NCBI GenBank assembly: GCA_963843015.1
Contig: CAWJIR010000012.1
Coordinates: 133,422-197,421 of the forward strand
Reading direction: 5' to 3'
DNA: 64,000 nt
From: an uncultured Chloroflexia bacterium
Lineage (GTDB): Bacteria; Chloroflexota; Limnocylindria; QHBO01
This document shows, in pieces, positions 9,748 through 63,436 of the stretch. The first letter of the stretch is position 1. Each line of letters starts with the position of its first letter. The translations under genes were made by a program, and so were the position numbers. The notes under the pieces are model-generated. The model did no database searches, was not told where the DNA came from, and saw only the letters and a list, made by a program, of their open reading frames with translations.

Positions 9748-11293
9748 TCAGGCGGCCTCCCCGCGCCCGGCCATGAGCATGCCCAGGTGCTCGACGTCCG
9801 CGTCGGCTGCGGTCATCTGGCCCACGATCGCGCCCCTCGTAGAGGACCACCAGCCGATCCGCGAGCGCCAGCAGCTCGTCGAGGTCCTCCGACACGAGCA
9901 GCACCGCTGCGCCGCGCTGGCGGGCGGCCAGGAGCTGCGAACGGACGTACTCGGTGGCCCCCACGTCCAGGCCGCGCGTCGGCTGCGAGACCACGAGCAG
10001 GCGCGGGTCGCGCGACAGGACGCGGGCCAGGAGGACCTTCTGGATGTTGCCGCCCGACAGGGTCACCACCGGGTCGTCGGGCCGGGCCCGGATGTCGAAG
10101 CGCTCGATCAGCGCTTCGGCGTGGGCGAGCACCGCCGCCTCGTCGATCCGCCCCGCGCGGCGGAACTCGTCGAGCCGCTCGAGGACGAGGTTGTAGGCCA
10201 CCGACAGGTCGCCGACCAGGCTGGCGTGACGGTCCTCGGGGATCCGCCCCACGCCGGCGGCCATGACGGCCGTGGGGTCGGCTTCCGTGACCTCGGTGTC
10301 GCCGACGGTGATCGACCCGCCGGTCGGGCGCCGCATCCCGGAGAGGACCTCCACCAGTTCGGTCTGGCCATTGCCCGACACCCCGGCCACGCCCACGATC
10401 TCGCCCGCGGCGACGTCCAGCGAGACATCGGTCAGCGCCGGCAGCCCCTGGGTGCCGGTGGCGTGGAGGTCGCGGATGCGGAGAATCGGCTCTTGGGCAG
10501 CCCGGCCGGCATCGGCTGGTCGTTCGACGCCGAAGCTCGGGCGGCCGACCATCATCCGCGCCAGCTCCCGCTCATCGGTCTGGCCGTCCACCGTCCCCAC
10601 CAGCGCACCGCGACGCAGCACGGTGATCCGGTGGCTGATGGCCCGCACCTCGGCCAGCTTGTGGCTGATGAACACGACCGCCATGCCCTCGCCGACGAGC
10701 AGGCGCAGGGTGGCGAACAGGGCCTGGACCTCGTCGGGGACGAGGACCGCGGTGGGCTCGTCGAGGATCAGGATGCGGCACTCGCGGGAGAGGGCCTTGA
10801 GGATCTCGACCCGCTGCTGCTCCCCGACCGACAGGTCCGCGACCCGGGCCGCGGGGTCGACCCGGATGCCGAAGCGGGTGGACGCCTCTTCGGCCTGGCG
10901 CCGGGCCGCGTTGAGGTCGAGCCGCAGCGTGCTGGCCCGGCCGAGGACCAGGTTCTCGGCCACGGTCATGGGCCGCACCAGGGCGAAGTGCTGGGTCACC
11001 ATGCCCACGCCCGCCTCGATCGCGTCGCGGGGCGAGCGGATGGCCCGGACCTCGTCCCCCACCAGGATCTGGCCCGAGTCGGGATGGGTCAGCCCGTACG
11101 CGATCCGCATGGCGGTCGTCTTCCCGGCCCCGTTCTCGCCGAGCAGGGCATGGACCTCCCCGGCCCGGACGTCGAAATCGATCCGGTCGTTGGCGAGGAG
11201 GTCGCCGAAGCGCTTGGTGATGCCGCGCAGCGCGAGCGCCGGCGCGCCGGGGGAAACGGGTGGCGCGCCGTCGGGCGCGCCACCAACGCTCAT
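9748..11293 (-). CDS. ABC transporter ATP-binding protein, duplicated ATPase (one frameshift near the 3' end)
   Basis: Two Walker A sites (GENGAGKTT, GVSGNGQTE) and two signature motifs (LSVGEQQR, LSGGNIQK). After ...VVLYEG the true C-terminus IVGQMTAADADVEHLGMLMAGRGEAA* is in the next frame (stop 9748-9750). The 893-aa ORF 8612..11293 is an off-frame read-through over the permease. Confidence 0.85.
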
Positions 11294-13686: not shown

Positions 13687-14181
13687 CTACACGTCCAGTC
13701 CATGCTCCGCCGCGAGGCGGGGAATGCTGGCGGGGTCGGTCTCGAGTCCGTAGCGCCCGCGGACCTCGGCGAGGACTTCGGGAGGCGGGCGACCGGGCTT
13801 GAACAGCTCGACCATCTCCTCGAAGTACTTCTCGAACCCTGCCGGCGAGATGATCTCGAGGACCCGGGCATCGGTGTCGCCGGCATTCCAGAAGGTATGC
13901 CACTGGTCGCGTGGCTTGAAGATGAGATCCCCCGCCTCGCCGAACATGATCTCGTCGCCGAGCAGCGCTCCCACCCGCCCCTCGAGGATGAAGCTGTATT
14001 CGTCCTCGCGGCTGTGCCGATGCAACGGAGCCGCCAGGGAGCGCGGCGGCATCGGGTGCTCGACCAGCGCGAAGCCGCCGCCGGACTCATCCCCACCGAT
14101 GAGGAATCGCACCCCCATGCCACCGAGCCGGCCAGCTCGTCCGTCGTCGGGTTTCAGGACCTTGGCGGGTTGGGTATCCAC
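13687..14181 (-). CDS. Cupin-domain protein
   Basis: GTG at 14181 is preceded by GGAGG. APLHRHSREDEYSFILEGRVGALLGDE...GDLIFKPRDQWHTFWN gives cupin motifs 1 and 2. Confidence 0.75.
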   Translation of the reverse strand: MDTQPAKVLKPDDGRAGRLGGMGVRFLIGGDESGGGFALVEHPMPPRSLAAPLHRHSREDEYSFILEGRVGALLGDEIMFGEAGDLIFKPRDQWHTFWNAGDTDARVLEIISPAGFEKYFEEMVELFKPGRPPPEVLAEVRGRYGLETDPASIPRLAAEHGLDV

Positions 14182-14221
14182 TCGATCCTCCAATCGGCGT
14201 TCGGTGCCGACGATACGCCCG

Positions 14222-14928
14222 TCAGGGAGCGGGGATCGCCTCGATGTGGTCCGCAAAGATGATCTGGCCCGGGCCACAAACGCCCGTGCCGCGCACGCTC
14301 GCCACCTGACCTGCGAACGTATCCGGATCACCTCGCGGCCCGAAAGCGCGCAGGCCCGTGCCCTCGGCCATACCAGGATCAGGTCGACGCGGACTACCTC
14401 GTCGTCAGTCACTCCGGCCGCGCAATCGGCCTGTCCGTGGAGGCGGCCTGGATATCCACGTCAGATTCGGGCCGACAGGAATCGGCCACCGAAGTTCCCG
14501 CCACTGTCGATGACCTCGAGGGAAACGGCTTCCTGCCCACCGACCTCGGCGAATGTGATCCGCCACTCAGGAGCCCGGACGCTCGTCCCCCCCACGGCAG
14601 ATCGGCCCATGAGCCGCGCAACGTGAAGTCGGATTGGAGAGTGGCCGAAGAACGAATTCGTCCAGGCCGACGTCCCTCGCCGCCGGGCGAGCCAGTGTCG
14701 GCGCTCATACCCATGAACCAGACGCACGAGCCGCGACTGCGCGCAGGTAGTACGTCCCGCTATCGGGATCGCCAGAGACCGGTGCCGCGTCGACGTGCCG
14801 TCACCGTCGGGCACGACCGGCGGAATTGCCTCCGCCGAGGCAGAGCTGTCGAGCGCGCTTTGGCTGGCGCTCGCGCAGCCAGGACGACGGCCATGCAGAG
14901 GACGGCCGCGACGATTCGAGGCGGGCAT
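14222..14928 (-). CDS. Putative secreted protein of unknown function (multiple frameshifts, reconstruction tentative)
   Basis: ATG at 14928 is followed, one frame over, by a signal-peptide-like RIVAAVLCMAVVLAARAPAKA. Protein-like segments are scattered over three frames (…VRAPEWRITFAEVGGQEAVSLEVIDSGGNF…; MAEGTGLRAFGPRGDPDTFAGQVASVRGTGVCGPGQIIFADHIEAIPAP* ending at 14222). No family recognised. Confidence 0.3.
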
Positions 14929-14982: not shown

Positions 14983-15066
14983 TCTGTCCCCTGTGTCGCA
15001 CCCATTCGTGGTACCGCGGTAACGAGCGTGTTTGAGCGCGTTACCACGAATGCTGGCGAGGAAGAA
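14983..15066. repeat. Conserved palindromic element, copy A (candidate cis-regulatory RNA or operator)
   Basis: Core 15003-15061 is CATTCGTGGTACCGCGGTAACGAGCGTGTTTGAGCGCGTTACCACGAATGCTGGCGAGG. By hand count 45 of 59 positions are identical, ungapped, to 35492-35550. The 16-nt arms are reverse complements with 1 mismatch. It lies in a 215-nt divergent intergenic region. Confidence 0.6.
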
Positions 15067-15142
15067 GGCCCCCCTGGATCCGCCGGCGACCGCCCGGACC
15101 GGCGACAGCCTAGGTGTCGCGAAGGCGTCCCACGATCGGGTC

Positions 15143-15384
15143 ATGACGGTCGACTACCACGAGTTCATCAACCGCGACCTGCCGCCGCGGGAGCGGGGCT
15201 GCACCTCGAAGGCCATGTTCCTGAGCCGCCGCGAGCGCGCTCCATCAGCCGCCAGCCCTGGGCCTCCAGCGGGCTCAAGCCATACCGATGCCGCTGGTGC
15301 GACGGGTGGCATCTCGGCCACCGCCGGCGCCGCGTCTGCACCCGAACATGCTGCTCAGCCCGGGGGGGACGGGCGCTAGAGTAA
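15143..15384 (+). CDS. Small zinc-ribbon-like protein (one frameshift near 15235)
   Basis: MTVDYHEFINRDLPPRERGCTSKAMFLSRRE in one frame continues as ...SISRQPWASSGLKPYRCRWCDGWHLGHRRRR in the next. The C..K..F.S...A......Y.C..C..WHL pattern recurs in small actinobacterial proteins I cannot name. Confidence 0.45.
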
Positions 15385-15388
15385 GTGC

Positions 15389-16589
15389 GTGGCGGACTAC
15401 AGCCGAACCGAAGCAGCCGAGCGGGCCGGGATCAGCGAAGCGGAGCTGACTCGCCTGGTCGAGCTGGGGATCCTCCACCCCGCCGAAGGCGATCGGTTCA
15501 GCAGCGGCGGAGATCCGGAAGGCGGCCCTGATCCACAGCTTGACCGAGGCGGGGCTGCCGCTCGAGGGGCTCGCCGCGATCGTCGCCAGCGGCGTCGCTC
15601 TCGCTCGACTTCATGGACACCCCCTCGTACGAGCGATTCACGCACCTCACCGACGAAACCTTCGCGCAGGCCAGCGAGCGGACCGGGGTGCCGATCGAGT
15701 TGCTGATGCTCGTCCGCGAGGCGGTGGGCGGGGCGATGCCCGAGCCCCGAAGACCGGATCCGCGAGGGCGAGCTGCCGACCATCGACTTCGTCCAGCGCA
15801 GCTGCGCGAAGGCTTCCGGCCGCCGGCCATCGAGCGCCTGCTCCGGGCGGAGGGCGAGAACCTCCGACGCGTCGCCGAGTCGGAGGCCGCATGGTGGCGG
15901 TCGGAAATCATCATGCCCGCTCTCGCGGCCGGGCAAGACGGCCGAGGAGCTGGCGAGCTCCGAGCTGTCGGACCGCATGTCCCCGTTGGCCGAGGCGTCG
16001 GTCCTGTCCATCTACCGCGCCCACCAGGTGCGGGAGTGGACGACGAACATCATCGACGGATTCGAGATCGTCATGGCCCAGGCCGGCATCGCGGGCCGGG
16101 TCGACAAGCCGCCGGCGATGTGCTTCCTCGACATCACCGGCTATACCCGCCTGACCGATGAACGCGGGCGACGAGGCGGCCGCGGCCCTGGCCGACCAGC
16201 TGGGCAAGCTGGTCCAGCGCTCATCGGTCCAGCACGGCGGGAAGGCGGTGAAGTGGCTGGGCGACGGGGTCATGTTCTGGTTCCGCGATCCCGGACCGGG
16301 GGTCGTCTCCGCCCTGGACATGGCCGAAGGGGTGGTGAAGGCCGGGCTGCCGCCCGCCCACGTCGGCCTCCACGCCGGACCCGTCGTCCAGCAGGGCGGC
16401 GACTACTACGGGCAGACGGTGAACATCGCGTCCCGCATCGCGGAGTACGCCCGCCCTGGGGAGGTACTCGTCAGCGAGGCCGTGGTCGAGGCCTGCGAGC
16501 ACGTGTCGGTCGACTTCACCGATCTCGGCGCGGTCGACCTCAAGGGCGTGGGCGGACCCGTCCACCTCCACGCCGCGCGCCGCAGCTGA
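15389..16589 (+). CDS. Class III adenylate/guanylate cyclase with N-terminal MerR-like HTH (at least 6 frameshifts)
   Basis: The N-terminus YSRTEAAERAGISEAELTRLVELGILHPAEGDRFS is a MerR-type HTH. The C-terminal catalytic domain reads PAMCFLDITGYTRLTDERG...KAVKWLGDGVMFWF...VGLHAGPVVQQGGDYYGQTVNIASRIAEYARPGEVLVS. Pieces are in ORFs 15389.., 15540.., 15613.., 15977.. and 16158..16589. Confidence 0.75.
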
Positions 16590-16601
16590 GACCGAGCTGC
16601 C

Positions 16602-17412
16602 GTGACCAGCCGCCCACCGGTGATCCCGTCGGTCGATCCCGAGGTGCAGCGGAAGTGGGAGAAGTACCTGGAGAGCCCGGACACGATGCAAAGCGTGGGT
16701 CGCCGGTTCTTCAGTCGGATTCCCGCGAGCCCACGATGTCAGATGTGCGCCTCCCCGTTCCACGGACCGGGCCGACACGTCATGCGGCTGGTCGGCAAGA
16801 AGCAATCCGCGATCAACCCGAACCTGTGCAACTGCGTGCGAGAAGTACATGCAGAAGTACCGCGGCGGCGCTGAGATCACCGGGACGATGCTGTTCGCGG
16901 ACATCCGGGGGTCGACGACGCTGGCAGAGACCATGACCCCGACGGAGTTCAAAGCGACCCTCGCCCGTTTCTACACCGTGGCGGCCGACGCGGTGTTCGC
17001 CAATGGCGGAATCGTGGACAAGTTCGTCGGCGATGAGCTGGTGGCCGCGTTTCCGCCATTCCTCGGGGCTGACACCTCATCCCGCGCCGTGAAGACCGCC
17101 GAGGACCTGCTTCGAGCGACCGGGCATGCCGATCCCGAGGGACCGTGGGTCCCGGTGGGGGCGGGGGTGAACACGGGACGGGTGTGGTTCGGGGCGATCG
17201 GCGAAGGGCAGCACGTCGAGGTCACGTTCGTCGGCGACGGCGTCAACGTGGCGGCCCGATTGGCGGGGGCGGCCGGCCCGGGTGAGATCCTCGTGACCAC
17301 CGCCGCGGCCGAGGCGGCCGGCCTTGACCCGGCACTCGAGCGCCGGAGCCTGGAGCTCAAGGGCAAGCAGGAAGCGACCGAAGTCGTCAGCCTCCGCATC
17401 GGTCCGCCCTAG
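16602..17412 (+). CDS. Class III adenylate/guanylate cyclase with N-terminal CxxC...CxxC zinc ribbon (one frameshift near 16845)
   Basis: PRCQMCASPFHGPG...NPNLCNC (ORF 16602..16874) is followed by GTMLFADIRGSTTLAE...DKFVGDELVAAF...VGAGVNTGRVWFGAIG...FVGDGVNVAARLAGAAGPGEILVT (ORF 16849..17412). Confidence 0.8.
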
Positions 17413-17446
17413 CCTGCTCATTGGCGGACCTCTTGGTGGACTATCG

Positions 17447-18193
17447 GTGAGGCTGTTCGGACCGCCGAGTGTCAGGAAGCTCGAGGCCGAGCGCGACGTC
17501 TCGGGTCTGATCGAGGCGCTCCAGTCCGAGAAGACCGAGCGCCGACTCGAGGCGAGCGAAGCGCTGGGCCGGCTGGGCGATCCGTCGGCGGGGCCCGCCC
17601 TCGTCGAAGCCCTGCAGGATCCAGCGGTCCGGGACACGGCGGCGGCCTCGCTGCTGGTGATGGCACCGGAGGTCATGGACGTCCTGGTCATGACCCTTCG
17701 CCAGGCGAATCCGCTCACCCGAGAGGCCGCCGCGGACCCTGCGGTCCGAACAGTCATCGCACAGATCCTTGGCTACGCGGGTGATGAGCGGGCGGTCGAG
17801 CCGCTCATCGGTGCGCTGGACGATGTCGACGACGTCGGGCGCGCCGCCATCCAGGCCCTGGTCAACCTGAAGGATCCGCGGGCCGTCACGCCGCTGGGCG
17901 ACCGGACCGTGCGGTACGGGGTCGAGGCCATTCAGGCCCTGGGCGACATCGGCGACCAGGGCGGGTTGGCGGCCGTCGTCGAATGGGTCATGCCTCAGAG
18001 CCATGTCCGAACCTCGGCCGATGACGCGGCAGTCGCCATCCGGGCCCTGGGCAAGATCGGTCCGCCGGAGATGGTCGTCCCGTTCATCCGCCGCATCCGG
18101 AACCACTTTCCGGGCGCCGGGACGCCGAACGGCGACATCATCCAGGCAGCTGTCCTCGATGCCGAAGCGTCCCTGGGCGAATCGGTTACGTGA
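17447..18193 (+). CDS. HEAT-repeat (PBS-lyase-type) protein
   Basis: GTG at 17447. It has repeated units of the form A..ALG.LGD..A...L..AL.D (EALGRLGDPSAGPALVEALQD; ILGYAGDERAVEPLIGALDD; ALVNLKDPRAVTPL; ALGDIGDQGG). Intact. Confidence 0.7.
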   Translation: MRLFGPPSVRKLEAERDVSGLIEALQSEKTERRLEASEALGRLGDPSAGPALVEALQDPAVRDTAAASLLVMAPEVMDVLVMTLRQANPLTREAAADPAVRTVIAQILGYAGDERAVEPLIGALDDVDDVGRAAIQALVNLKDPRAVTPLGDRTVRYGVEAIQALGDIGDQGGLAAVVEWVMPQSHVRTSADDAAVAIRALGKIGPPEMVVPFIRRIRNHFPGAGTPNGDIIQAAVLDAEASLGESVT

Positions 18194-18206
18194 GAATCGG
18201 TCAGAC

Positions 18207-19070
18207 ATGGAGTCCGAGTTCGTCGAGGCCAACGGGATCCGCTTCCATTGCCTGACCGATGGCAGCGGTCCGCTGGTGCTCCTGCTCCACGGCTTCCCGC
18301 AGTTCTCGTACGAGTACCGGCACCTCGTCCCGGCCCTGGCGAAGGCGGGATACCGGGCGGTCGCGCCGGACCTCCGCGGCTACGGCGACACGAGCCGGCC
18401 GGGGCGGATCGAGGACTACCAGCTCCGGATCCTTGGGGATGACATCGCCGCCCTGGTCGAGGCGCTCGGCGAGCGGAAGGCCCACGTCCTGGGCCACGAC
18501 TGGGGCGGGATCGTGGCCTCGGAGGCGGCGGTGTCGCACCCGGACCGGGTGGATCGGCTCATCCTGGTGAACGGTCCACCAGCGCGGGTGATCGGGCGAG
18601 GGGTCAACCACGACTGGGGGCAGCGCCTGCGCAGCCTGTACGTCGCGATCTTCCGGATCCCGCGCCTGCCGGAGTGGTGGATCACCTGGGGCCACGGTCG
18701 TGCGATGAAGTACCTGCTGAGTGACGGCAACTTCACGAAGGAGGAGGTGGACGTCTACCGCGACGCCATCTGCCGCCCGGGTGCCGCGTGGGCCGGGTTC
18801 GCCTACTACCGCTCCATCACCCGCACCATTCGCGACGACGGCCGACGGCTGCGCGGCAAGACGATCTCCGCCCCCACCCTGGTCCTGTGGGGCGAGCGCG
18901 ATCGGGCGCTCGGCCGGAAGCTCGCCCAGTACATGGACAAGGAATTCAGCGGACCGATCCGAAAGGTGTTCTTCCCCGACGTCGCCCACTGGCTCATCGA
19001 GGACCGCCCCGAGGAGGTCGCCCGCCTGGTGATCGACTTCCTGGACGAGGGCCGTCAGCCCGCCGCCTAG
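18207..19070 (+). CDS. Alpha/beta hydrolase (epoxide-hydrolase/haloalkane-dehalogenase-like)
   Basis: Intact. LVLLLHGFPQFSYEYRHLVPALAKAGYRAVAPDLRGYGDT, nucleophile elbow GHDWGG, C-terminal HW. Confidence 0.85.
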   Translation: MESEFVEANGIRFHCLTDGSGPLVLLLHGFPQFSYEYRHLVPALAKAGYRAVAPDLRGYGDTSRPGRIEDYQLRILGDDIAALVEALGERKAHVLGHDWGGIVASEAAVSHPDRVDRLILVNGPPARVIGRGVNHDWGQRLRSLYVAIFRIPRLPEWWITWGHGRAMKYLLSDGNFTKEEVDVYRDAICRPGAAWAGFAYYRSITRTIRDDGRRLRGKTISAPTLVLWGERDRALGRKLAQYMDKEFSGPIRKVFFPDVAHWLIEDRPEEVARLVIDFLDEGRQPAA

Positions 19071-19100
19071 GGCTCCCGTGCGGCTCCTGTGTGCTGCTCA

Positions 19101-19135
19101 CATGCTTTCGTGATAGGCGCTTATCACGAAGCAAT
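19101..19135. repeat. Strong hairpin between convergent genes, related to the palindromic element arms
   Basis: TTCGTGATA (19107-19115) and TATCACGAA (19122-19130) are perfect 9-bp arms with a 6-nt loop, extendable with bulges to about 14 bp. The arms differ from TTCGTGGTA/TACCACGAA of copies A and B by a G>A change and the complementary C>T change. Confidence 0.5.
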
Positions 19136-19180
19136 GTGACACGAGCACCGGCACGGGAACGAGCTCCCCGAGCCATCGAT

Positions 19181-19844
19181 TCACGGAGCCTCAGCGGCCA
19201 TCTGCTCCACGCCATCGAGGATCAGGTCCAGGCCGAACTCGAAGTCGCCCTCGTCCAGGGAGCCCTTTTCCAGGTGCTGGACCACGTGCTCGGCGAGGTA
19301 CGGATACTCGTCGACCGGGAGTGACTCGAGAAACGCCGTCCCGGCATCGGCCAGGTCGGCATCCTCGAGCGGGAAGGCCTGCGCCTGCAGCGTGTAGCCG
19401 AAGATGTGGTTCTCCACCGCGTGGTAGACGCGCTCGGTGATCTCCGGCGACAGGCCGCCATCCCGGAACGTCTGCAGCGCCGAGTCCATGTAGCGCATCC
19501 GCCCCGGGCCCACCCCGGCCTGGATCCATCGTGTGCCGGCCCACGGATGGCGGAGCAGGACCTCGCGGGTGGCGATCGCTCGCCGGCGCGTCGTGCTCTT
19601 CCAGTCGTCCCCCTCGGGTGGGAGCTCGACCTCGCCGGCCAGCAGGTCGATCATGCCGTCGAGCATCTCGTCCTTGTTCGCCACGTAGTGGTACAGGGTC
19701 ATGGCCTCGACCCCGAGCTCCTGCGCCAGGCGGCGCATCGTCAGCGCGCCGATCCCCTCTCGGTCGGCCAGGCCGATGGCCGTGCGCAACACCCGATCCC
19801 GGCTCATGGGGCTCTCGCCGGTGCGTCGGGTCTGGCTGAGCCAT
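19181..19844 (-). CDS. TetR/AcrR-family transcriptional regulator (probable frameshift near 19825)
   Basis: RVLRTAIGLADREGIGALTMRRLAQELGVEAMTLYHYVANKDEML is a TetR HTH. The ATG at 19844 has a strong GGAAGGAGG Shine-Dalgarno but is one frame off the body. The in-frame ATG at 19807 has none. Confidence 0.8.
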
Positions 19845-34298: not shown

Positions 34299-35405
34299 TC
34301 AGCCGCCGATGCGGGACATGTTCCGCGGCGGGGGCCGGAAGCCCGGGTCGCCGATGTGGTGCTTCAGCTCCTTGTTCCAGGCTGCCTCGCGGATGAGCTC
34401 AGCCAGATCGGCGTCCGACGCGCCGGCGCGCATCGGTCCACGAAGGTCCGTCTCGTCGATGCTGAACAGGCACGTCCGCAGCGTCCCCTCGGCCGTCAGC
34501 CGCAGCCGGTCGCAGGCGTCGCAGAACGGCTCGCTGACCGGGTTGATGAAGCCGATCTCCCCCACCCCATCGGCGAACCGATACACGCGGGAGGTCTGGG
34601 CGGGGTCCGCCATCGGGATCGGCTCCAGCGGAAGCCAGGCCGATGGGACCGATGCCTCCAGCGCCGCCTTCAGCTCGGCGCCGGTCAGGACCTCGTCCGC
34701 CGTCCAGCGACCGCCGCCGTCGAGCGGCATGAACTCGATGAAGCGCACGACGTAGCCGCGCTGGCGGGCCAGGTCGGCGAAGGCGCGGATCTCGCGGTCG
34801 GTGATGTCGCGCAGGGCGACGGCGTTGACCTTGATCGGGCGCAGCTGCGGGTAGGCCTCCGCGGCCTTGAGGCCGTCCAGGACCTGGTTCGAGCGCGTCG
34901 CGGCGGGTGATGTCGCGGAACGTCTCGGCCACGAGGGAGTCGACGCTCACGTTCAGGCGCTGGAGGCCCGCGGCGGCCAGGGCGGGCAGGTGGCGCTCGA
35001 GAAGGAAGCCGTTGGTCGTGAGGGACAGGTCGGTCAGGCCGTCGGGTTCCATGGCCGCCAGGCGCGCGACGATCTCGGGCAGCTCGCGACGGACGAGCGG
35101 CTCGCCCCCGGTGAGGCGGACGTTGGTGATGCCCATGCCCACCAGCAGGCCGACCAGCCGCTCGATCTCGTCGGGGGTGAGCAGCTCCCCGTGGGGCAGG
35201 AACGTCATGTCCTCCGAGGGCATGCAGTACAGGCAGCGGAACTGGCAGGCATCGGTGACCGAGACACGCAGGGCGCGCAGCGTGCGTCCGAACCCGTCGA
35301 CCAGCGGCCCCTCCCCGTGCAGGTGTGCCGGCCCGGCACCGTTCGCCCGGGACGTGCCGCGGCAGCTCGGTGATCTGGGTCAGCACCTGCGCCATCGGTA
35401 CAGCA
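34299..35405 (-). CDS. moaA: GTP 3',8-cyclase MoaA (radical SAM; at least 3 frameshifts)
   Basis: LRVSVTDACQFRCLYCMPSEDMTFLPHGELLTPDEIERLV...VRLTGGEPLVRRELPEIV (CxxxCxxC cluster), MRFIEFMPLDGGGRW, and the C-terminal cluster SEPFCDACDRLRLTAEGTLRTCLF. The ATG at 35405 (MAQVLTQITE...) is in a different frame from the body. Confidence 0.85.
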
Positions 35406-35469
35406 TCCCAGAGGTCGTTGCTCGCTGCACGACCCGCCCTCTGCTGTTTGGCTCGCGGCCGACTCCCCG

Positions 35470-35556
35470 TTGCCTCGCGTGCATTCGTGGTATCGCGGTA
35501 ACAAGCTCGACCGTGCTCGCTACCACGAATCGTGGCGACGCAGAAGCGTGGTGGCC
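35470..35556. repeat. Conserved palindromic element, copy B (in the moaA 5' region)
   Basis: Core 35492-35550 is CATTCGTGGTATCGCGGTAACAAGCTCGACCGTGCTCGCTACCACGAATCGTGGCGACG, with shared flanks (CTCCCC..TCGC upstream, GCAGAAG downstream). It lies between the GNAT stop (35586) and the moaA start (35405). Confidence 0.6.
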
Positions 35557-35585
35557 TCAATACACCCGGGCAGCCATCAAGGGCG

Positions 35586-36435
35586 GAAGTCGATCCGCAA
35601 CGCGTCGGTAACCGGCCGGTAACCGATGGCCTGGTAGATCTTGTTCGACGTCGGGTTGGCGAGATCGGTGTACAGGAAGCAGAACCGCCGGCCCGCGTCG
35701 AGCTGTGCCTGGCTGACCGCGGCGACCAGCGCCGATGCGTAGCCCTGCCCGCGGTCGGACGGGCGGGGTGTAGACCGGACCGATGCGGATGCCGTTCGGC
35801 GTCTCGCCGCCGACGCCGGTCAGGGACCTCGGTCCGTTGTCGTCCCACAGCCACAGCCGACGCCCCTTCCCGGCCAGCCAGTCGTCGACCGATGCCATCG
35901 CCCGGGACGCGTCATCGTCGCCGAGCGCCTCGCGCCCGAACTCCGCGATCCAGTCGACGAGGAGCAGCCGGTCGTCGGGCGTCGCGCGCTCGCATGCCAC
36001 CGCTCACCGGGCGCGGCGGTATGACGGCCGTGAGCTCGAATACCCGCTCCTCCATACCGATCTCCCACCGGCCGCCGTGGGCTGCCACCCATCGGTCCGC
36101 AAATCCGGTGGCCACGTCCGGCGCCCCGACCACTCCGGGAACGATCCTCGCGTTCCAGATCGGCCACGAGCATGTCCAGCGCCGATTGCGTCGTCGACCT
36201 CGGAGAGGACGAGGTTCGACGGGGGCGTTCGGAGTGCCGCTGCGACCAGCGCCCCGTCTTCGGTGACCACTGCCAGGTACGGCGGCCCGGCGTAGATCTC
36301 GGGATGGTCGCTGAGGGTCGACGCAATGCCCAGGATCAAGTTGTGCTCCGCCTCCCGTCGCCCGAGCCACGCGCCGGCGGCAGCCAGGAAGTCCGGCGCG
36401 TGTTCGAATCGGTCCAGTCGCAGGGGTCCGCCCAT
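35586..36435 (-). CDS. GNAT-family N-acetyltransferase (at least 4 frameshifts)
   Basis: MGGPLRLDRFEHAPDFLAAAGAWLGRREAEHNLILGIA...PPYLAVVTEDGALVAAALRTPPSNLVLS (tail of ORF 36004..37569); ...RLLLVDWIAEFGREALGDD...RLWLWDDNGPRSLTG...IRIGPVYTPP (ORF 35557..36000). The acetyl-CoA motif RGQGYASALVAAVSQ...FLYTDLANPTSNKIYQAIGYRP...* was read by hand and ends at 35586. Confidence 0.7.
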
Positions 36436-61911: not shown

Positions 61912-63436
61912 GCTCCTGAAGGAGGGGGTCGCCCCCGCCCCACGGGTCGTCGACCCTGCTCTCGCCCGACGAGCAGCCGCGATCCTGGCGGTGGCCGCCG
62001 CGATTCGGCCTGCTCGTCCAGCTCCTGTTCGTCGAAGCGCTGTTGGGCGTCAACTTCCCGATCACGATTGCCGTCCTGCTCGCCGCCGGCTGGTGGGCGC
62101 GGGACCCGGCCGCCCGCGGTCTGGATCGCGCGGACCTGTGGATCGCGCCGGCTGCGGTGCTCCTTGCCGCGTTCGTCGCGATCCGCGGCGACTCCGCGCT
62201 CGTCGCGCTGGATGTGCTGGGGTCGATTGGGCTGGCGGGCCTCGCGCTGGCCAGCTTCGGCGGATTCGCGGTCGTGCGTCGGCCGTTCGAACGCATCCTG
62301 CAGCTGGGAGGCGTCATCGCCGGGTGGGGCATCTTCGGAGGCGCGACCACCATCTCCGACGCGCAGGCCGCGGCGCCGGGTCAGGCCCGTGCGGCCATGT
62401 CGCGCGGGGCTCCGCTGCTGCGCGGCCTCCTCATTGCCGTCCCGCTGGTTCTCATCTTTGCGTTCCTCTTCTCCGCGGCCGACGCCGTGTTCGCCGAGAT
62501 GGCCGGGAACCTGTTCGACTGGGATCTCGATGCCTCGGAGCTCGTGGCGCGCACCGTGACGGCGGTCATCGCGGCGTGGGCGGTCGCCGGGCTGCTGGGC
62601 CTGGTGGCCCTCCGCGATCGGAGCAATGACCCGCCCGGCGACGCCCATGGAGCGGACGCGGCCGCGGATCGGCACGACGGAGTGCCTCGTCGTCCTCGTT
62701 GCCCTGGACGTGCTGTTTGCCGCCTTCGTCGTCATCCAGGCGGCGTACCTGTTCGGCGGGCTGGACACCCTGGCCACGACCGGCATGACCTATGCCGAGT
62801 ACGCGCGTCGCGGATTCTTCGAGCTGCTGGCGGTCGCATTCCTGGTCGCGGGGCTCGTCCTCGGCCTCGAGGCGCGTCGTGACCCGCCGGTCGCGCGCCT
62901 ACGTCATCGCCGCCATCGTCCTGGTGGGTTTGACGATCGTCGTGCTCGGGTCGTCACTGCTGCGGCTGCGGCTGTACCAGGATGCGTACGGCTGGACGGA
63001 GCTGCGCTTCTACGTGCTCGCCGCCATCGGCTGGCTGGCGATCGGTGCGGTCGCGACCATCGTCGCGCTGGCCACGCAGCGAACCCGGTGGCTGCTGCAT
63101 TTCATGGTGATGCTCTCCGTGGCGTTCGGCATCGCCTTCAACCTCATCGGTCCGGTCCACTTCATCGCCGAGCAGAATGTCGCGCGCGCCGTGGATCCCT
63201 CGCTCGTGCCGCCCGGTGGCGAGACCGGACTTGACGTGTACTACCTCTCATCGCTGGGCACCGATGCCGACATCGTGATGGCCGAGGCGCTGCCGGAGCT
63301 CCCCGAGCCGGCACGCTCCGAGGTGGAAGGCGCCCTGTCGCTCACGGCGTCCTCCCTCGCGAACGAGCCGTACGCCGACGCGTGGCAGGGATGGAACTAC
63401 TCCCGCGAGAAGGCCCGCGCCCTGCTGGTCGAGTAG
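61898..63436 (+). CDS. Large polytopic membrane protein (DUF4153/DUF4173-like; at least 3 frameshifts)
   Basis: Pieces are in ORFs 61898.., 62043.., 62626.. and 62792..63436: LGVNFPITIAVLLAAGWW, LLRGLLIAVPLVLIFAFLFSAADAVF, TYAEYARRGFFELLAVAFL, LRLRLYQDAYGWTELRFYVLAAIGW, WQGWNYSREKA. Confidence 0.6.

Follow-up and report, generated by a model that had tools for sequence, protein, structure and literature searches.

Inverted TTCGTG-N-TA boxes in intergenic DNA: a candidate REP- or MITE-like palindromic repeat of an uncultured Solirubrobacterales-like actinobacterial lineage

The stretch of DNA analysed here, referred to as the window, is 64 kb long and has a G+C content of 70%. The proteins that match its MoaA best (85-95% identity) come from soil metagenomes, and the named matches standing lower in the list belong to Solirubrobacterales or Solirubrobacteraceae. 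The moaA gene (GTP 3',8-cyclase; 34299-35395, minus strand; 95% identity to P0001) is preceded on the same strand by a GNAT/FR47 acetyltransferase gene (35577-36000, minus strand; one frameshift near 35770). The spacer from the GNAT stop (~35577) to the moaA ATG (35395) measures 178 nt and holds a palindromic element, copy B (35475-35546, plus strand), with GNAT upstream and moaA downstream of it. Another copy of this element, copy A (14996-15067, plus strand), lies in a divergent spacer of 214 nt. To its right is the gene of a small conserved CxxC protein of about 65-75 aa (15143-15384, plus strand; frameshift near 15230; 97% identity to P0121), which starts 82 nt from the copy; to its left, at 75 nt, starts the gene of a conserved hypothetical protein (14461-14928, minus strand). 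The ATG at 14928 does begin a real gene, but a frameshifted one, since a 263-aa homologue (P0263) matches two reading frames of the region, and the gene probably extends to ~14138.

Broken reading frames are frequent in the window. They affect moaA (two frameshifts), the GNAT gene, the small CxxC gene, the gene starting at 14928 (at least two) and a MerR-like/cyclase gene, and the frameshift-dense regions lie at 34299-35395, 35577-36000, 15143-15384, 14138-14928, 15389-16589 and ~12400, the last being the N-terminus of a BMP lipoprotein gene. Such density reflects either an unpolished, noisy long-read assembly or real gene decay and pseudogenes.

Copies A and B share a span of 72 nt in blastn (14996-15067 against 35475-35546) at 76% identity and E=3e-12. 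They also align in reverse orientation, at 69% identity, because the element is nearly palindromic. The exact arms ATTCGTGGTA and TACCACGAAT, separated by a 28-nt spacer, occur twice in the window and in none of 100 shuffles, and the TCGC/GCGA flanks of the two copies are complementary too. Given the blastn span, the identical arms, the shuffles and the pairing flanks, the similarity between A and B is therefore real and beyond chance. The initial annotation had reported this sequence as shared, in the same orientation, by two intergenic stretches, and both 59-mers that it quoted are present: that of copy A at 15003-15061, as given there, and that of copy B at 35482-35540, 10 nt to the left of the 35492-35550 assigned to it. 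The moaA ATG had been displaced by the same +10 slip (35405 for the true 35395), so the distance of 87 nt between copy B and the start codon is unaffected. The high identity also stands, with 46 of 59 positions on recount instead of 45.

Both copies are built alike. Copy A has an outer helix TCGC/GCGA (14996-14999 with 15056-15059), an unpaired bubble of 3 nt, a box helix cATTCGTGGTA/TACCACGAATg (15003-15013 with 15042-15052) and an interior of 28 nt, CCGCGGTAACGAGCGTGTTTGAGCGCGT. Copy B has the outer helix TCGC/GCGA (35475-35478 with 35535-35538), a bubble of 4 nt, the box helix ATTCGTGGTA/TACCACGAAT (35483-35492 with 35521-35530) and an interior of 28 nt, TCGCGGTAACAAGCTCGACCGTGCTCGC. Adjoining copy B is a putative degenerate third box, CGTGGTGGC (35547-35555, plus strand), a weak match that is 89% complementary to the right arm GCTACCACG (inverted repeat I3); judged by its sequence, it possibly makes an alternating L-R-L' cluster together with copy B.

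Nothing else in the window had been thought to resemble the two copies, but a third, more diverged member exists. Copy C (19098-19139, plus strand; TCACATGCTTTCGTGATAggcgctTATCACGAAGCAATGTGA) was detected by nhmmer with E=3e-4 and 1.6e-3 and corresponds to inverted repeat I5. It lies between convergent gene ends, the stop of an alpha/beta hydrolase gene at 19070 (plus strand) and that of a TetR gene at 19181 (19181-19807, minus strand), the product of the latter being 100% identical to P0141, which is encoded on a 214-kb NCBI/ENA contig, probably the one from which the window was taken. Its layout is TCACATGC-TTTCGTGATA-ggcgct-TATCACGAA-GCAATGTGA, with a loop of 6 nt, and it follows the same two-helix plan as A and B, with the outer helix TCACAT/ATGTGA and the box helix TTCGTGATA/TATCACGAA. 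The middle box base forms an A:T pair in copy C, where A and B have G:C.

The conserved unit of these elements is a 9-nt box, TTCGTG-N-TA, which occurs as inverted pairs. Six boxes were found in the window against about 0.14 expected under a first-order Markov model, and 300 first-order simulations never gave more than two. All six fall in the three inverted pairs that form hairpins A, B and C, all of them intergenic, and when the inverted repeats of the entire window are ranked by strength, all three hairpins come within the first five. Another strong hairpin, outside the box family, is located at 61968-62018 (GACGAGCAGCCGCGATCCTGGCGG/CCGCCGCGATTCGGCCTGCTCGTC; arms of 24 nt, loop of 3 nt). 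An nhmmer profile made from 13 half-sites recovers every known copy and gives no other match in the window. Each copy occupies a different class of spacer: A stands between divergent gene starts, B between genes of one direction and C between convergent stops. The density amounts to three copies in 64 kb, or about one per 21 kb; in L082, one of the loci from related genomes, it is two in 20 kb.

Around the box, a half-site of about 25 nt can be recognised, consisting of YGTC-R-CA(C), 2-4 unpaired nucleotides and (A/T)TTCGTG-N-TA. Two inverted half-sites make a hairpin of two helices, interrupted by an internal bubble and closed by a loop of variable size. The half-sites are arranged L-to-R in the window and in the related locus L027, and R-to-L in L082 (two pairs) and L081. 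The four L-to-R copies (A, B, C and L027) have a common plan, in which the outer helix is followed by 2-4 unpaired nucleotides per side, the box helix and an interior of 6, 28, 28 or 36 nt. The outer helix is TCGC/GCGA in A and B and GTCACA/TGTGAC in C and L027. The arms are 21-25 nt long and 76-83% complementary, and the elements span 42-95 nt and have no coding capacity.

Pairing is maintained through sequence change. Across the four L-to-R copies, 90.6% of the stem cells are paired, compared with 17-50% in slid controls, and four pairs have changed on both sides, the middle box base being G:C, A:T or C:G and the outer helix changing from G:C to A:T. The internal bubble is unpaired in all four. 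Folded as single-stranded DNA, copy A reaches -21 kcal/mol (z=-5.45), and the z-scores of C and B are -3.47 and -1.8. The left interior YCGCGGTA(A/G)C is common to A, B and L027, so that the element has an orientation. The strong conservation of the box helix at the sequence level suggests that a protein reads the box.

The element was described in the initial annotation as conserved, and this does not hold at the moaA locus of relatives. It was found upstream of moaA in none of four relatives whose MoaA proteins are 89-95% identical. In L078 (MoaA 95% identity) and L026 (92%), the spacer between GNAT and moaA is only 22 and 27 nt, respectively, which leaves no room for the element; it measures 85 nt in L028 (91%), while in L027 (89%) a spacer of about 100 nt separates an LLM gene from moaA. 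Only the last ~25-45 nt before the ATG can be aligned across these loci, and the extra DNA of the window relative to L028 is a close match in extent to the 72-nt element plus some upstream sequence. Directly upstream of the moaA start, at 35396-35416 (minus strand), lies the motif TCTGG(C/G)A(C/T)GCTGTACCG, which is kept with few substitutions in the window, L026, L027, L028 and L078, whatever lies upstream.

Other sites show the same patchwork of filled and empty positions. A homologue of the element is present in L027 between SnoaL and DUF6498 genes of the same operon; it matches the left half of copy A at 27 of 38 positions and keeps the two-helix plan. This site is filled only in L027, the empty sites compared being those of the window, which has a short spacer without the element, and of L079. 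The position of copy A, upstream of the small CxxC gene, was searched for the element without success in L080 (small protein 97% identical) and L081 (89%). The site is filled in the window and in L082 (78%), where a box pair of the opposite inverted arrangement stands about 100 nt upstream of the small gene and TTTCGTGCTAACGCAGTAACG matches the core of A and B at 17 of 21 positions. A second R-to-L pair of L082 is placed downstream of a DUF2283 gene, and L081 has an R-to-L pair at the orthologous site with a different spacing, as well as a weak third box that makes an alternating cluster. The spacers between boxes range from ~0 nt (L081) to 104 nt (L082). No boxes were found in L083, L084 and L089 (about 48 kb in all), which represent more remote relatives or different loci. 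Filled and empty sites, compared between the window and L078, L026 and L028 and between L027 and the window and L079, align too poorly for their edges, and with them a target-site duplication, to be delimited.

Searches of sequence collections added no member to the family. The pattern ATTCGTGGTA-N15-45-TACCACGAAT, run against 185,579 species genomes and 241 million metagenome records, returned 25 genome loci and 49 metagenome loci, none of which shares flanks or interior with the element; as this pattern fixed the middle arm base, members with variant arms could not be found by it. Viral contigs, examined with pattern scans and an nhmmer filter, gave only low-GC chance matches, blastn against plasmid and phage collections gave no match, and a full-text literature search for the arm sequences led only to unrelated eukaryotic and viral studies. 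The hairpins downstream of TetR in L089 and at the empty site of L080 are no better than shuffles (z of about +0.6). The genome scan also brought up unrelated repeats. Palindromes of ~82 nt (CGTGCGATTCGTGTTATTCGTGGTAA...TTACCACGAATCACACGAATCGAACG) form a family in a planctomycete MAG (Planctomycetaceae; L008, L011, L020 and L025) and recur every 137 nt in L025. Similar hairpins composed of tandem ATTCGTG heptads occur on Cloacimonadota and Flavobacteriales contigs; L003, L013, L015, L016 and L031 are also among the loci of this observation.

The combination of a short non-coding palindrome, strictly intergenic copies in all spacer classes, both kinds of dimer, maintained complementarity and polymorphic occupancy is the signature of REP/BIME/REPIN or MITE elements. 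The best explanation, to which a probability of roughly 60% is given, is a lineage-restricted REP/REPIN- or MITE-like palindromic repeat family of an uncultured, high-GC, Solirubrobacterales-like actinobacterial lineage, a family known here from 64 kb and the loci of relatives, in which three copies could also be a low-copy feature. The REP-like element was one of the candidates offered in the initial annotation. It is favoured by the position of copy C at convergent ends, the empty moaA site of relatives, the shifted site of L027 and the varied arrangement of the boxes. By the reasoning of that same annotation, copies at 3' ends and a want of conservation in relatives point to a generic repeat, and both were found. 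Intergenic scatter and absence from the moaA site of close relatives likewise suggest an element of the REP/MITE type more than a molybdenum-cofactor switch.

Under the repeat-family reading, copies would be gained and lost between close relatives and would land in any class of intergenic spacer. Of the loci compared, only the window has a filled site upstream of moaA, and copy B would represent an insertion, or a lineage-specific retention, within a GNAT-moaA pair that is tightly spaced in the two closest GNAT-carrying relatives. The hairpin would form in single-stranded DNA or in a transcript, and a transposase or recombinase acting in trans could read the box helix and thereby spread or maintain the copies. 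Secondarily, the hairpin between GNAT and moaA may terminate transcripts in part or stabilise their 3' ends, and a stable hairpin at this position may uncouple genes that are 22-27 nt apart in those two relatives. The family adds a REP/MITE-like candidate for an uncultured soil actinobacterial lineage; it could be used as a marker of strain-level variation and rearrangement hot spots, and offers a starting point in the search for the box-reading protein.

A more specific proposal, tentative and on balance doubtful, is that the box hairpins are the substrate of an undescribed hairpin-reading transposase or recombinase of Thermoleophilia-like Actinomycetota, in a REPIN-type system. Such an enzyme might also drive rearrangements of gene blocks around copies A and C. 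No transposase or integrase was recognised by Pfam in ~35 ORFs of the window, which are ordinary chromosomal genes, and no transposase was seen in the gene tables of the relatives' loci. If true, this would be a REPIN-type system new to a phylum for which the REP literature compared here has none, and its site would be distinctive, with an outer helix, a fixed unpaired bubble, a box helix conserved in sequence and a free loop.

Vertically inherited, non-mobile RNA hairpins would be an unlikely alternative to the dispersed repeat. In this reading, 'I-shaped' terminators lacking a U-tract, or stabilisers of 3' ends, would resemble each other through common descent or convergence. Copies C and B, the L027 copy, the second pair of L082 (L082b) and the L081 pair all lie shortly downstream of stop codons, the stems are stable and their complementarity is maintained. 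However, copy A and the first pair of L082 (L082a) stand between divergent gene starts, where there is nothing to terminate, and consensus scans for a hairpin followed by a T-run found none at copies A, B and C. A site may be filled in one genome while 95%-identical relatives have it empty, and the conservation of the 9-nt box exceeds what a terminator needs.

Unlikely as well is the reading of the box pairs as binding sites of a sequence-specific DNA-binding protein, whether a transcription factor or a protein of the nucleoid or partition type, with TTCGTG-N-TA as half-site and a regulon that includes moaA and the small CxxC gene. The box sequence is conserved in A, B, C and relatives beyond what pairing alone requires, A and B are 75-87 nt upstream of start codons, and both the window and L082 carry a box pair ~100 nt before the small CxxC gene, which could reflect a function at the promoter. 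Yet half-site spacing varies from ~0 to 104 nt in both inverted arrangements, copy C lies between convergent 3' ends, and the closest relatives lack the pairs at their orthologous promoters. The arms covary at their middle base, and the flanks pair; a dimeric protein reading duplex DNA needs neither. Consensus scans detected no sigma-70-like promoter at copies A, B and C, and to our knowledge none of the operator motifs of ModE, CIRCE, DasR/GntR, parS or LexA fits the sequence or the spacing. The small gene has a conserved promoter-proximal palindrome of a different kind, CGACAG-N5-CTGTCG (GGCGACAGGCTAGCTGTCRCG), 20-40 nt upstream of it in the window (15107-15125) and in three relatives (L080, ~412-430; L081, ~1848-1866; L082, ~9962-9980), and this palindrome is probably the true promoter or operator of the gene. 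The long operator for one shared regulator that the initial annotation had offered is unlikely, with the convergent-gene copy C and the variable geometry standing against it.

The surroundings of copies A and C bring in a further alternative, and a very unlikely one, in which the elements would be folded single-strand recombination sites of an attC/Xer-like kind at the borders of exchangeable gene blocks. Between A and C lies a block of about 4 kb (15062-19097) whose genes, encoding the small CxxC protein, a MerR-like/cyclase protein, a cyclase, a HEAT-repeat protein and a hydrolase, are all on the plus strand, opposite to the genes of both flanks, which are on the minus strand. Synteny with relatives ends at or near copy A (against L080) and near copy C (against L089), and the block is compatible with inversion or block exchange at the repeats. 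In relatives, the small CxxC and TetR genes are surrounded by packed toxin-antitoxin modules (PIN/MazE, HicAB, DUF2283/DUF2442, RHH), as in L084 (8076-13859), L082 (6934-12858), L089 (3584-6242) and L081; this neighbourhood is a plasticity zone with widely variable gene content. All four L-to-R copies consist of two helices with a conserved bubble that stays unpaired and a loop that varies, a build that would also suit a recombination site. Nevertheless, the RYYYAAC/GTTRRRY core sites are absent, as read from the sequence of the outer helix, neither an integrase nor a recombinase occurs among the ORFs scanned, there is no tandem cassette array, and copy B sits within a conserved operon without any exchange of genes.

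Least probable of all is a cis-regulatory leader RNA, a riboswitch or attenuator with mutually exclusive helices in the minus-strand transcripts of moaA and of the gene starting at 14928, which was another suggestion of the initial annotation. A and B are alike in orientation and in distance to the minus-strand ATGs, the minus-strand fold of B has z=-3.1, and the alternative pairing of the right arm with an internal GGTAAC does exist in both copies, B needing for it G-U pairs that are possible only in minus-strand RNA. However, Rfam gave no hit over the whole window at the gathering score and none at E<=10 over 35380-35620 around copy B, the Moco riboswitch (RF01055) included; near copy A, the only hit at E<=10 was chrB-a, with 13 bits against a cut-off of 43.9 bits and outside the element. 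The element is not conserved at orthologous 5' regions, being absent upstream of moaA in the four close relatives, and copy C is upstream of no gene. In L027, the arms have changed to C:G without a matching change in the internal GGTA repeats, so the alternative helix is lost there, and copy C, without an interior, does not keep it either. The idea of a moaA leader or riboswitch is essentially excluded, and with it goes a false lead, as the sequence contains no new regulatory RNA for moaA or Moco. Two further candidates were rejected: attL/attR sites of a 20-kb island between A and B, because the copies are 76% identical with no identical core, no integrase is present and synteny crosses B; and a DNA-uptake sequence, because the boxes, roughly tenfold too rare, never occur within genes and have a variable middle base.

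Among known systems, the closest likeness is with REP, BIME and REPIN elements, which occur in Proteobacteria (E. coli, Pseudomonas) and are mobilised by RAYT transposases. Like them, the repeat described here is a short, extragenic, imperfect palindrome whose inverted units make a longer hairpin, and it shows both inverted arrangements, small alternating clusters, patchy occupancy in close relatives and maintained complementarity of the stems. REPs form inverted head-to-head and tail-to-tail dimers in families of fewer than 20 to thousands of members, with a patchy distribution among species (PMC3733652, PMC3116915, PMC5581495). A survey detected tagged REPs in eight phyla, and its main text makes no mention of Actinobacteria (PMC3733652). 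The unpaired GTAG head, a criterion taken from the same source (PMC3733652), is lacking in the element, and its hairpin differs in that a conserved bubble divides it into two helices. High copy number defines REP and MITE families, and RAYT-associated REPs reach tens to hundreds of copies per genome and have a cognate RAYT (Y1/HUH transposase) gene with repeats on its flanks; here, the ~35 ORFs scanned in the window and the relatives' gene tables show no RAYT gene, and the host is actinobacterial.

The outer ends of the half-sites recall a second group. The CGTC-tagged REP superfamily has the tag variants CGTC, TGTC and CCTC, no dedicated transposase, stems of 8-9 bp and loops of 4-5 nt (Di Nocera et al. 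2013, PMC3733652). In seven of the eight half-sites of the L-to-R copies, the outer end is CGTC, TGTC or CCTC. However, the 'tag' of the element is base-paired with its partner instead of being unpaired, the sizes of stem and loop differ, and there is no CCA tail, so the resemblance may be a coincidence.

Bacterial MITEs such as Correia, ERIC/IRU, RUP and Nezha resemble the element in being small, non-coding and intergenic, in having inverted-repeat ends and in the polymorphism of their insertions between relatives. MITEs can sit inside operons and alter transcription. The element, of about 45-95 nt, is shorter than these, and neither a target-site duplication nor a parent insertion sequence with matching ends was found. 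With the attC sites of integrons, it shares a folded form of two helices, an unpaired spacer and a loop of very variable length, as well as a location at the edges of variable gene blocks, but not the core, the integrase or the cassette array. The likeness to the Moco riboswitch is confined to the position upstream of moaA, whereas size and architecture are unlike, the covariance model does not match and the element is not conserved at orthologous moaA genes. It is not yet to be filed as REP or REPIN, because the GTAG tag is absent, the YGTC/CCTC ends are paired and copy number and transposase are known only for 64 kb. In form and distribution, however, the element is REP/REPIN-like, and as a palindromic repeat of intergenic DNA specific to one lineage it belongs to an ordinary class of objects.
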